From a phage: 44,937 nucleotides of DNA. The DNA lies in assembly GCA_025700225.1 (NCBI GenBank), contig GCA_025700225.1_4339.1; one strand, given 5' to 3'. The translations under genes and the position numbers were made by a program. This document shows, piece by piece, positions 1 through 44,886 of this stretch. The notes under the pieces were generated by a model. That model worked only from the letters and a program-made list of their open reading frames with translations. It was not told the origin of the DNA and searched no databases. How positions within the stretch are numbered: position 1 is the stretch's first letter; the number at the start of each line of letters is the position of its first letter.

Positions 1-32
1 AAAAAAAAATCCCGGCTGGGTCAGGGCCGGGA
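1..32 (-). terminator. intrinsic terminator (GC hairpin + T-run on minus strand)
   Basis: 7-bp stem tcccggc/gccggga (10-32); read on the minus strand it is followed by nine T (plus-strand A1-9). Confidence 0.55.
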
Positions 33-285
33 GAAACAGAGAGTAGAGGGATGATACAGGAGGTCGGAATAGTCCTCAAGGCACTGCCATTCCCTGTTAC
101 GGATGTCACCATACGGCGACCAATGGTCTTATGTATCTTGAGTGGATGAAACCAGTATGAAGCGGCCGTTGTTGGGTGTCAACAGAGATTTCCGGCTCGC
201 GTTACCGCACATCGGCTCGACCTTGCCACAGGTCCGCGCGGGTGATGATACCCGGAATGCCCGCAATGTTGTTTATCTTCTGTTG

Positions 286-318
286 ACGAAATAAAACCCG
301 GATTCGCGGTCCGGGTTT
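286..318 (-). terminator. intrinsic terminator downstream of endolysin gene
   Basis: stem aacccgga/tccgggtt with 7-nt loop; on the minus strand followed by TTTATTT; lies 40 nt past the endolysin stop. Confidence 0.55.
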
Positions 319-356
319 CGGGGTGGCGCAAGCACAAACAGCGTAGAGTGATTATA

Positions 357-845
357 TCAACCTTTCACCGCACGTCCAATAGCAACAGCCTCTTGCCACG
401 GTTTACCATCGAACAGTGCCAGTCGCCCGGCTGTACGGCGTCGCAGGCCAAGTAGGGGTTTGCCATTCTGATTAATGAACAACGCCAGCTTAGCCCGCAG
501 AGTCTTAACATCACCCGAGCGCAGTGCCTTTCCTGTGCCGGTAGTAGCAGCAATAACGCCAGCACCCGCGTTAAACACCAGGTCACACACTGCGTCGAAC
601 TGGCCCTGAGTCAGCGAGTGGTGCGCTGCGGAATCAACGGCAGCTACTGCCTTCGCCATATCGCGATTGAGTAGCAGCAGTCCCTGACCCGGCGTGATGG
701 TCTGCCCCGGCTTAACGTCGGCACCGTAATGCCCGAACCCTACGGTCAGGTACTTTTCATCCGGGGTAGCGCGATACGCAGTTCCGCGGAACCCCTCAAA
801 TGCGGCAGTGAAATGCAGCCCATTATCTGAAATGTTTCGAGACAC
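357..845 (-). CDS. endolysin, GH24 lysozyme (T4 E / lambda R-like muramidase)
   Basis: 162 aa; catalytic-region motif FEGFRGTAY...TVGFGH typical of phage lysozymes; GTG start preceded by AAGGAGG. Confidence 0.88.
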   Translation of the reverse strand: MSRNISDNGLHFTAAFEGFRGTAYRATPDEKYLTVGFGHYGADVKPGQTITPGQGLLLLNRDMAKAVAAVDSAAHHSLTQGQFDAVCDLVFNAGAGVIAATTGTGKALRSGDVKTLRAKLALFINQNGKPLLGLRRRTAGRLALFDGKPWQEAVAIGRAVKG

Positions 846-44852: not shown

Positions 44853-44886
44853 TTCTCTCTACTCCGTTCTCGTTGTCGATGGAGTA

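Follow-up and report, generated by a model that had tools for sequence, protein, structure and literature searches.

The window analyzed here is a 44,937-nucleotide stretch of DNA (NCBI GenBank assembly GCA_025700225.1, contig GCA_025700225.1_4339.1) that represents the complete, circularly permuted genome (~44.9 kb) of a K1G-like E. coli siphovirus that belongs to Kagunavirus, a genus in the subfamily Guernseyvirinae. Its first 360 bases have matches in 121 phage records, nearly all of which are from Escherichia phages of this genus. The lysis cassette is located on the minus strand and consists of two holin genes followed by the endolysin gene, whose tblastn matches are labeled endolysin or lysozyme in 505 phage records. 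Downstream of this gene lies a segment of about 250 base pairs (bp) bounded by two intrinsic terminators, herein called T2 and T1. On the circular map, T1 is followed by another minus-strand operon, which opens with small genes near the window's right end (from 44852 downwards) and continues with the terminase. We conclude, with a probability of about 0.58, that the segment holds the 5′ portion of a conserved, previously undescribed small RNA gene along with its promoter, and that its product is a candidate trans-acting RNA with an anti-Shine–Dalgarno seed.

A conserved promoter-to-terminator unit downstream of the endolysin gene

The first-pass annotation of this DNA proposed that two tandem minus-strand terminators follow the endolysin gene, and both are real as judged from their folding energies and from z scores relative to shuffled sequences. 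T1 reads UCCCGGC-CCUGACCCA-GCCGGGA followed by nine U residues (−13.0 kcal/mol, z −2.66), and the corresponding values for T2 are −14.4 kcal/mol and z −2.38. A simple consensus terminator scan called neither hairpin, which in the case of T1 is explained by a 9-nt loop that exceeds the 3- to 8-nt limit of the scan. T1 is kept in every relative examined and is present in 121 Kagunavirus records. T2 is a variable accessory module, located directly 3′ of the endolysin gene in this phage; it occurs at 13 of 42 Kagunavirus loci, with several kinds of surrounding sequence. Because T2 ends the lysis operon in the window phage, the RNA unit that terminates at T1 depends on its own promoter there.

The stem of the T1 hairpin covaries across genera. 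Three of its seven base pairs exhibit compensatory double changes (UA/GC, GC/CG, and CG/UA/GC), a covariation score reached by none of 500 shuffles, and slid controls contain no compensatory pairs. Despite these changes in the stem, the loop sequence CUGACC is invariant. T1 provides the 3′ end of the candidate small RNA and, in relatives that lack T2, terminates the lysis operon as well.

A sigma-70-type promoter, herein called P1, is oriented toward T1 and has a predicted transcription start at about position 147 (an A). It is conserved in all aligned relatives. The homologous site is called “Host promoter5” in the record of Kagunavirus fBC-Eco01, whose depositors independently predicted a host promoter and a terminator at this place without further comment. 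Within Kagunavirus, none of the six columns of either hexamer varies, compared to 10 of the 17 columns of the spacer, and the chance of none of the 10 variable sites falling on the 12 hexamer positions is approximately 0.001 (hypergeometric, calculated by hand). The same pattern extends over five lineages whose spacers are unrelated, namely typical Kagunavirus, the window together with metagenome contig L041, phage TPH05A, Jerseyvirus, and the Serratia phages. All five carry a TTGACA-like hexamer, a spacer of exactly 17 nt, and a −10 hexamer of the form xAxAxT. In the three lineages that are free of insertions, the seventh base past the −10 hexamer is a purine, which is followed immediately by C(C)UCCUG. 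We infer that P1 is active, and likewise the exact 5′ end of its RNA.

At 35 of 41 loci, the unit made up of promoter, transcript, and T1 is compact and spans exactly 101 bp. At most Kagunavirus loci this unit abuts the endolysin gene, such that its −35 hexamer overlaps the stop codon. Mean identity between phages is 95.4% for the 101-bp unit, compared to 79.6% for the endolysin gene and 68% for the 150 bp downstream. The region from the −10 hexamer through CCUCCUG is almost invariant, and the middle of the transcript is more variable. The unit of the window (182..1) occupies the family position between the endolysin gene and the promoter of the next operon, a strong promoter that begins about 30 nt downstream of T1 and corresponds to “Host promoter6” of the fBC-Eco01 record (Table 1).

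Comparable units are widespread in the subfamily. BLAST searches yielded 121 records with the Kagunavirus version, 328 with the Jerseyvirus version, and five with the Serratia version, and the unit thus occupies the same position in about 450 related sequenced Guernseyvirinae genomes. The same layout directly follows the endolysin gene in Jerseyvirus phages SE2, LSPA1, MA12, and PK1, in many IMG/VR contigs, and in Serratia phages Smarc3, Tsm2, and Otaku. In the Jerseyvirus and Serratia representatives, a −35 hexamer (TTGACA, TTGGCA, or TTGCCA) is separated by exactly 17 nt of unrelated spacer from a −10 hexamer (GATACT, GATATT, TACATT, or TATATT). Seven bases further on stands G-CUCCUG, followed by a CAUCC-type motif, a U-rich stretch, the hairpin, and a tail of 7 to 14 U residues, beyond which lies a second and stronger promoter for the next operon. 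Enterobacter phage phiEap-2 carries a weaker and longer homologue of the unit.

This family of short post-endolysin RNA units of Guernseyvirinae is defined in the current analysis, and we found no paper that describes a small RNA of Kagunavirus or Jerseyvirus. A covariance model, R1, has its sole match in the window genome at positions 2-65 of the minus strand (80.4 bits, E 2e-16). Since the 22 sequences used to build R1 include that of the window, this score is partly given by construction, whereas the single-copy result is independent of it. The unit is single-copy per genome according to the model. A weak second match to the RNA model was noted in contig L041 (11148-11213, minus strand, 21.4 bits, E ~0.007), and the window has none of this kind. 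Two IMG/VR contigs (L059 and L065) match a degenerate version of the pattern and have a similar downstream promoter. They were not counted as members, since neither shows the layout of hairpin and promoter and their scores reach only about 13 bits.

When bacterial genomes were scanned with the endolysin protein, only phage-like contigs of one assembly were recovered. Three contigs (NZ_JACVEL010000022, 45, and 47; L075-L077) in the assembly of Taishania pollutisoli CZZ-1, a member of Bacteroidota, encode a Jerseyvirus-type endolysin (73-78% identity) accompanied by the RNA unit (71-75 bits), and it seems more likely that this assembly is contaminated with phage DNA than that it includes a prophage.

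Table 1. Features at the left end of the window and at the adjoining right end (numbering of the 44,937-nt window)
Feature	Positions	Strand	Description
T1, intrinsic terminator	1..32	minus	7-bp GC-rich stem, 9-nt loop CCUGACCCA, U9 tail
CU-rich RNA body	33..66	minus	CGACCUCCUGUAUCAUCCCUCUACUCUCUGUUUCU; predicted fully single-stranded
Lineage-specific insertion (~80 bp)	65..147	minus	Transcribed region, between predicted start (A at 147) and CU-rich seed
P1, sigma-70-type promoter	182-154	minus	TTGACA (182-177), 17-nt spacer, CATACT (159-154); 10/12 consensus matches
Relic module, 103 bp	183..285		Non-coding; between T2 and P1
T2, intrinsic terminator	286..319	minus	10-bp stem GAAACCCGGA/UCCGGGUUUU, then UAUUU
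P2, extended −10 promoter-like site	320..378	minus	TGGACG-16 nt-TG-a-TATAAT (TG-a-TATAAT at 359-351); overlaps endolysin stop codon
Endolysin gene, 162 aa	357..845	minus	Listed open reading frame; upstream neighbor of the segment
Promoter of next operon	44915-44887	minus	Strong sigma-70 type, TTGACT-17-TATATT; conserved in Kagunavirus and Jerseyvirus

A candidate trans-acting RNA with an anti-Shine–Dalgarno seed

We propose that P1, as a host-type sigma-70 promoter, fires toward T1 and would generate an RNA of about 65 nt in most Kagunaviruses. The 5′ end of this RNA is predicted to be single-stranded and to start at or beside (C)CUCCUG, which is the complement of the Shine–Dalgarno core AGGAG and would be presented as A-CCUCCUG or G-CUCCUG. 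The middle of the RNA would carry a second C/U-rich motif, CAUCCCUCU, and then a short U-rich stretch, and the 3′ end would be formed by the GC-rich terminator hairpin and its long U tail. The common Kagunavirus form has AUCACCUCCU in the DNA that begins just upstream of the predicted start, and these ten bases are the same as those at the 3′ terminus of E. coli 16S rRNA. The RNA would pair with host or phage mRNAs at their purine-rich ribosome-binding regions and thereby modulate their translation.

This anatomy is that of a typical enterobacterial trans-acting small RNA of the Hfq type. In the window, an intrinsic terminator with a long U tail is preceded by a U-rich single-stranded stretch, as is characteristic of such RNAs. 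Specifically, the six nucleotides directly 5′ of the hairpin are GUUUCU in the window and UUUUAU in typical relatives, and the tail comprises nine U residues. Expression of the RNA is predicted from its sequence features, and its dependence on Hfq and its pairing in trans with ribosome-binding sites are likewise probable rather than observed.

The segment of the window is a mosaic in which, according to the alignment, positions 1-63 and the promoter are conserved in all relatives and the other parts are variable. Its CU-rich body holds CCUCCUG, the CAUCCCUCU motif, and a U-rich stretch immediately before the hairpin, and CUCCUG is retained in Kagunavirus, Jerseyvirus, and the Serratia phages. 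The window thus shares with the family the CAUCCCUCU motif, the U-rich stretch, the hairpin with its CUGACC loop, and a tail of at least seven U residues. However, CCUCCUG is located at positions 63-57, about 90 nt past the −10 hexamer rather than at the family position 7-8 nt past it, because of the insertion between the predicted start and the seed. As a result, the window RNA would be about 148 nt long, compared to about 65 nt in most Kagunaviruses.

This insertion is not present in four aligned relatives, and no match was found in 50,697 phage records, in IMG/VR (two scans), in bacterial genomes, or in E. coli genomes. Its only homologue is in contig L041, with approximately 92% identity as judged by eye; two other matches from the metagenome scan proved to be chance 20-mers. 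The RNA structure of the insertion is not significant relative to shuffled sequences (z −0.62). Another relative, L027, carries a different insertion of 103 nt (~80-185, minus strand) at exactly the same site, between the start or −10 hexamer and CCUCCUG, and this insertion has 14-bp terminal inverted repeats. It is predicted to fold into an extended, very stable hairpin that leaves the seed single-stranded (z −4.2, with −60.8 kcal/mol for the RNA as a whole). The inserted DNA could be an element resembling a miniature inverted-repeat transposable element, or it could provide an added 5′ stem-loop. The presence of different insertions at one site in the window and in L027 indicates that the 5′ end of the RNA gene is a hot spot for insertion.

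Several observations weigh against a trans-acting RNA. In the window phage and in L041, the seed is located about 80 nt from the 5′ end, and contig L041 lacks 19 nt of the CU-rich body while retaining CCUCCUG, the promoter, and T1. Thus, the copy of the unit in the lineage of the window and L041 may be altered or decaying. In the minimum free energy fold of the 148-nt window RNA, the seed is partly paired, albeit in a weak fold (z −0.69). In addition, the sample used to assess conservation was chosen in part by an exact match to the T1 hairpin, which inflates the apparent conservation of the hairpin, although not that of the promoter. In most relatives the unit doubles as the 3′ untranslated region (UTR) and terminator of the lysis operon, and this alone could explain part of the conservation. 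The single paper with RNA-seq data for a Kagunavirus, vB_Eco_K1B4, is not concerned with non-coding RNA and does not contain the words “non-coding” or “intergenic” (PMC12645636).

Searches for targets were likewise negative, with no signal in excess of that due to composition. In silico, the seed binds the translation-start regions of phage Bas70, 82 in number, no better than shuffled seeds do (p ~0.08-0.13), and pairing of the RNA with the leader of the next operon is not significant (p 0.1-0.36) and is absent in the Serratia phage. Heptamers to nonamers complementary to the loop or the seed occur at chance frequency genome-wide. The leader of the next operon, CATCGACAACGAGAACGGAGTAGAG (window 44853-44886, minus strand), is itself near-identical in Kagunavirus and in Jerseyvirus (L045, L046, and L048), even though the operon starts with a different gene. 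Its complementarity to the central part of the candidate RNA does not exceed the level of shuffled controls.

The RNA does not belong to a known family, as no Rfam family reached its gathering threshold over the whole window. The only Rfam models that give any signal in all three phage lineages, all of them sub-threshold, are those of CU-rich Burkholderia small RNAs. For example, RF02278 (“Betaproteobacteria toxic small RNA”) scores 18.8 bits in the window and 21.5-25 bits in relatives, relative to a gathering threshold of 50. Staphylococcal RsaE is a CU-rich small RNA that masks ribosome-binding sites. More generally, CU-rich unpaired small RNAs that act in this manner are an established class that includes RF02278 and NmsR (PMC5688073), and these two are the closest analogues described. 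The phage RNA has in common with RF02278 (Burkholderia ncS03/05/27/62) and Neisseria NmsR a CU-rich unpaired region. However, RF02278 is a double-hairpin family, whereas only the terminator hairpin is predicted or conserved in the phage RNA. Moreover, the RNAs come from unrelated organisms, and nothing points to a shared origin. We therefore regard the resemblance as one of probable mode of action and not of membership.

A parallel in architecture is provided by host RNAs. RybB and OmrA/B are Hfq-dependent and have a 5′-terminal seed, and DapZ and MicL are small RNAs transcribed from the 3′ ends of genes by an internal promoter. The phage unit resembles these RNAs in its sigma-70 promoter, in a single-stranded seed at the extreme 5′ end, in a U-rich tract that leads into a GC-rich terminator hairpin whose tail has at least 7-9 U residues, and in its location at the 3′ end of a coding gene. 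It differs in that the host RNAs are chromosomal, whereas the phage RNA is a predicted product of virulent siphoviruses. Small RNAs are also made by lambdoid phages and prophages, including lambda 6S RNA (transcribed from PR′ to tR′), oop RNA, DicF, and IpeX. These are likewise short phage-borne units with their own promoter and intrinsic terminator near the lysis region. However, they have no sequence similarity to the phage RNA, with DicF scoring only 13.6 bits and at another place in the window. In addition, oop RNA is antisense to its neighbor, whereas the phage RNA is on the sense strand.

Competing explanations for the unit

Perhaps the unit is merely transcriptional punctuation. In this scenario, T1 and T2 end the lysis operon and insulate the next promoter, the CU-rich 3′ UTR stabilizes the lysis mRNA, and any short transcript from P1 is a by-product that has no role in trans. 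We consider this explanation unlikely, but some observations favor it. The element lies right against the endolysin stop codon in most relatives, with T1 as the sole terminator after the lysis genes, the next promoter is only about 30 nt past T1, and no significant target was found. What it leaves unexplained are hexamers that remain invariant at a fixed distance of 17 nt with a freely varying spacer in Kagunavirus and across three genera, an invariant loop on a covarying stem, and a core that is more conserved than the adjacent coding sequence. Furthermore, promoter and seed are intact even where an upstream T2 uncouples the unit from the lysis mRNA. The earlier suggestion that the segment simply insulates the lysis genes holds in part, in that T1 is the conserved terminator standing between the lysis cassette and the operon that comes next on the minus strand, but it overlooks that the unit also has its own promoter.

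The small RNA interpretation can also be carried further. It is conceivable, though rather improbable, that all Guernseyvirinae make an early RNA of about 65 nt with the host polymerase that copies the anti-Shine–Dalgarno tail of 16S rRNA and serves as a general decoy to reprogram translation during lytic growth. Such an RNA might occupy strong Shine–Dalgarno sequences, or it might titrate Hfq, ribosomal protein S1, or Rho via its YC-rich tract, with the invariant YUNR-type loop CUGACC perhaps providing a second contact point.

Alternatively, the unit might act in cis as a leader or attenuator, similar to the PR′-tR′ region of lambda with its 6S RNA. P1 would load polymerase, which T1 would stop unless an antiterminator permits read-through into the small genes, the terminase, and the structural genes. 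A promoter, a short RNA, a strong terminator, and then morphogenesis genes on the same strand are indeed found in this order, and an antiterminator could hide among the small phage proteins, which are mostly of unknown function. Nevertheless, we judge this arrangement improbable. Lambda 6S RNA is an antitermination leader behind the Q gene that serves an operon without a second promoter. By comparison, a near-consensus promoter stands right after T1 in Kagunavirus, Jerseyvirus, and the Serratia phages, and the gene upstream of P1 encodes endolysin rather than a Q-like protein. No antiterminator family was detected among ten neighboring proteins (Pfam, PHROGs), and none is annotated in the Bas70 record. 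Nor is there a conserved promoter-proximal pause element resembling a −10 sequence, since the bases after the −10 hexamer are TAAATCA, AAACCTG, GGTGTCG, or GTCTTTG.

It is very improbable that the conserved product is a small protein, encoded either by a sense open reading frame (ORF) of 26-39 amino acids (aa) or by an antisense mini-ORF. The first-pass annotation saw no credible ORF in the segment, and this assessment is borne out. The ORFs between the terminators are 32-52 aa at longest and none is conserved. Parts of the segment also occur in six other phages, and in none of them are the frame and sequence of these ORFs kept: insertions and deletions disrupt the frames, and most substitutions are non-synonymous. 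One frame in the 183-285 module (..NNI(A/E)G(I/T)PGIIT.ADL..) resembles a gene remnant, and purifying selection is not seen. We also looked for a conserved coding sequence in homologues and found none. The variable sites of the conserved core are distributed 9/9/6 over the three codon positions, with no codon periodicity and no third-position excess, and the motifs CTCCTG and CATCCCTCT lie in differing reading frames in Kagunavirus and Jerseyvirus (by eye).

Two features nonetheless could be taken to favor a protein. Hypothetical proteins have been called over the unit in Bas70 (Bas70_0074), Ivi (ECPH5_11), and EcoPhCCP1 (XHQ01469), and an antisense ATG is preceded at 8-9 nt by GGAG in all three lineages (by eye). 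However, the annotated ORFs disagree among records in frame, length, and position. A further call, VIPECOTPH05A_00008, also covers the promoter, RNA, and terminator, and the frames of all four are mutually inconsistent. These short hypothetical proteins are probably over-calls. The antisense mini-ORF (ATG..CAGGAG..) comprises 6-13 codons in relatives, and the window version encodes 32 aa (51..149, plus strand). Overall, it can be as short as 6 codons or longer than 32, and its changes are non-conservative. No promoter was identified on the antisense strand. A variant in relatives L029 and L032, CAAGGAG, retains CUCCU while altering the peptide. The mini-ORF is therefore probably a by-product of the CU-rich sense strand.

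The last proposal, also made in the first-pass annotation, is that the segment holds a genome end or a packaging (pac or cos) site. The window does begin exactly at T1, three assemblies (L022, L024, and L037) end within about 60-150 bp of T1, and the core is very highly conserved. However, the cut point of the window falls within the poly-A of T1, and a homopolymer of 9-11 A residues is a plausible break point for an assembly. When the end of the window is joined to its start (...cagaaaatagat|aaaaaaaaatcccgg; extended, ...cagaaaatagat|aaaaaaaaatcccggctgg), the resulting sequence is unbroken in phage Sciku, in contig L041, and in others, which indicates that the left end is an arbitrary cut of a circularly permuted assembly. 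The site homologous to T1 has many differing coordinates across other records, in most of which it is well inside the record, and the BASEL record of Bas70 was deposited as circular. PhageTerm analysis of Kagunavirus fBC-Eco01 revealed no obvious termini (PMC9825357). Given also that a promoter and a terminator are transcriptional features, a genome end or packaging site is scarcely credible here.

Accessory modules, neighboring genes, and implications

Upstream of P1, the window has two variable accessory modules, T2 and the 103-bp relic. The relic shares 87-90% identity with sequences in Ivi, EcoPhCCP1, fEg-Eco19, L014, L033, and L041, and is thus found in seven phages including the window. 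It does not fold better than shuffled sequences (z −0.14).

A promoter-like site at the endolysin stop codon, P2, has a near-perfect extended −10 element and is the best such match in the first 3 kb of the window (10 of 12 positions plus the TG). A conserved sequence, ACGCUGUUUGUGCUUGCGCCACCCC, comes after P2 and runs into T2, and TGATATAAT is conserved in TPH05A, where the hexamer is TTGACG with a 17-nt spacer, and in L041. Variants of the site include AATAAT in Ivi and TATAGT in Golestan-type phages, and Enterobacter phage phiEap-2 has an akin site at its endolysin stop (TTGGAC-17-TATATT). P2 and T2 could constitute a second RNA unit of about 55 nt (window 344-286), which we note here but do not regard as established.

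Small ORF modules that are not present in the window also come and go between the endolysin stop and T2 or P1. One encodes a 25-aa acidic peptide, MALQEFTNPVKSRDDIDESIGYGEG, preceded by a good Shine–Dalgarno sequence, and another, which overlaps the endolysin stop, encodes the hydrophobic 30-aa peptide MTEFDFIFLAIGAGAVVGAFWGAIDAFRKG. Such modules were observed in two sets of relatives (L001, L014, L015, L024, L036, and L041; L003, L013, and L035). With the T2 module, the small ORFs, and the insertions in the window and L027, the post-endolysin locus is a natural insertion hot spot.

Two observations concern the lysis region more broadly. Upstream of the holin genes, the minus strand encodes a 160-aa protein (2027-2509) that has an N-terminal coiled coil and contains four cysteine pairs of the CxxC-like type. 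It matches phrog_6094, a group of unknown function, and no Pfam family. No spanin gene follows the endolysin gene, because Rz/Rz1-like spanin genes sit far off among the head genes. They are annotated there in Bas70 (L044, 5487-5982) and, by synteny, would be located at about 36.7-37.2 kb in the window.

The recognition of this unit has practical consequences. Its site is unannotated in some records, is covered by a spurious hypothetical protein in some, and is marked with a promoter or terminator in a few, and annotation pipelines should avoid ORF calls over it. Many phages that bear the unit are therapeutic candidates against E. coli and Salmonella, and a payload inserted after the endolysin gene would interrupt this conserved element.

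Regulatory RNAs have been poorly charted in virulent phages. If the RNA described herein is expressed, then it would offer a compact and easily mutated handle on how these siphoviruses tune translation or the timing of lysis. It would also serve as a test case for anti-Shine–Dalgarno small RNAs made by viruses.

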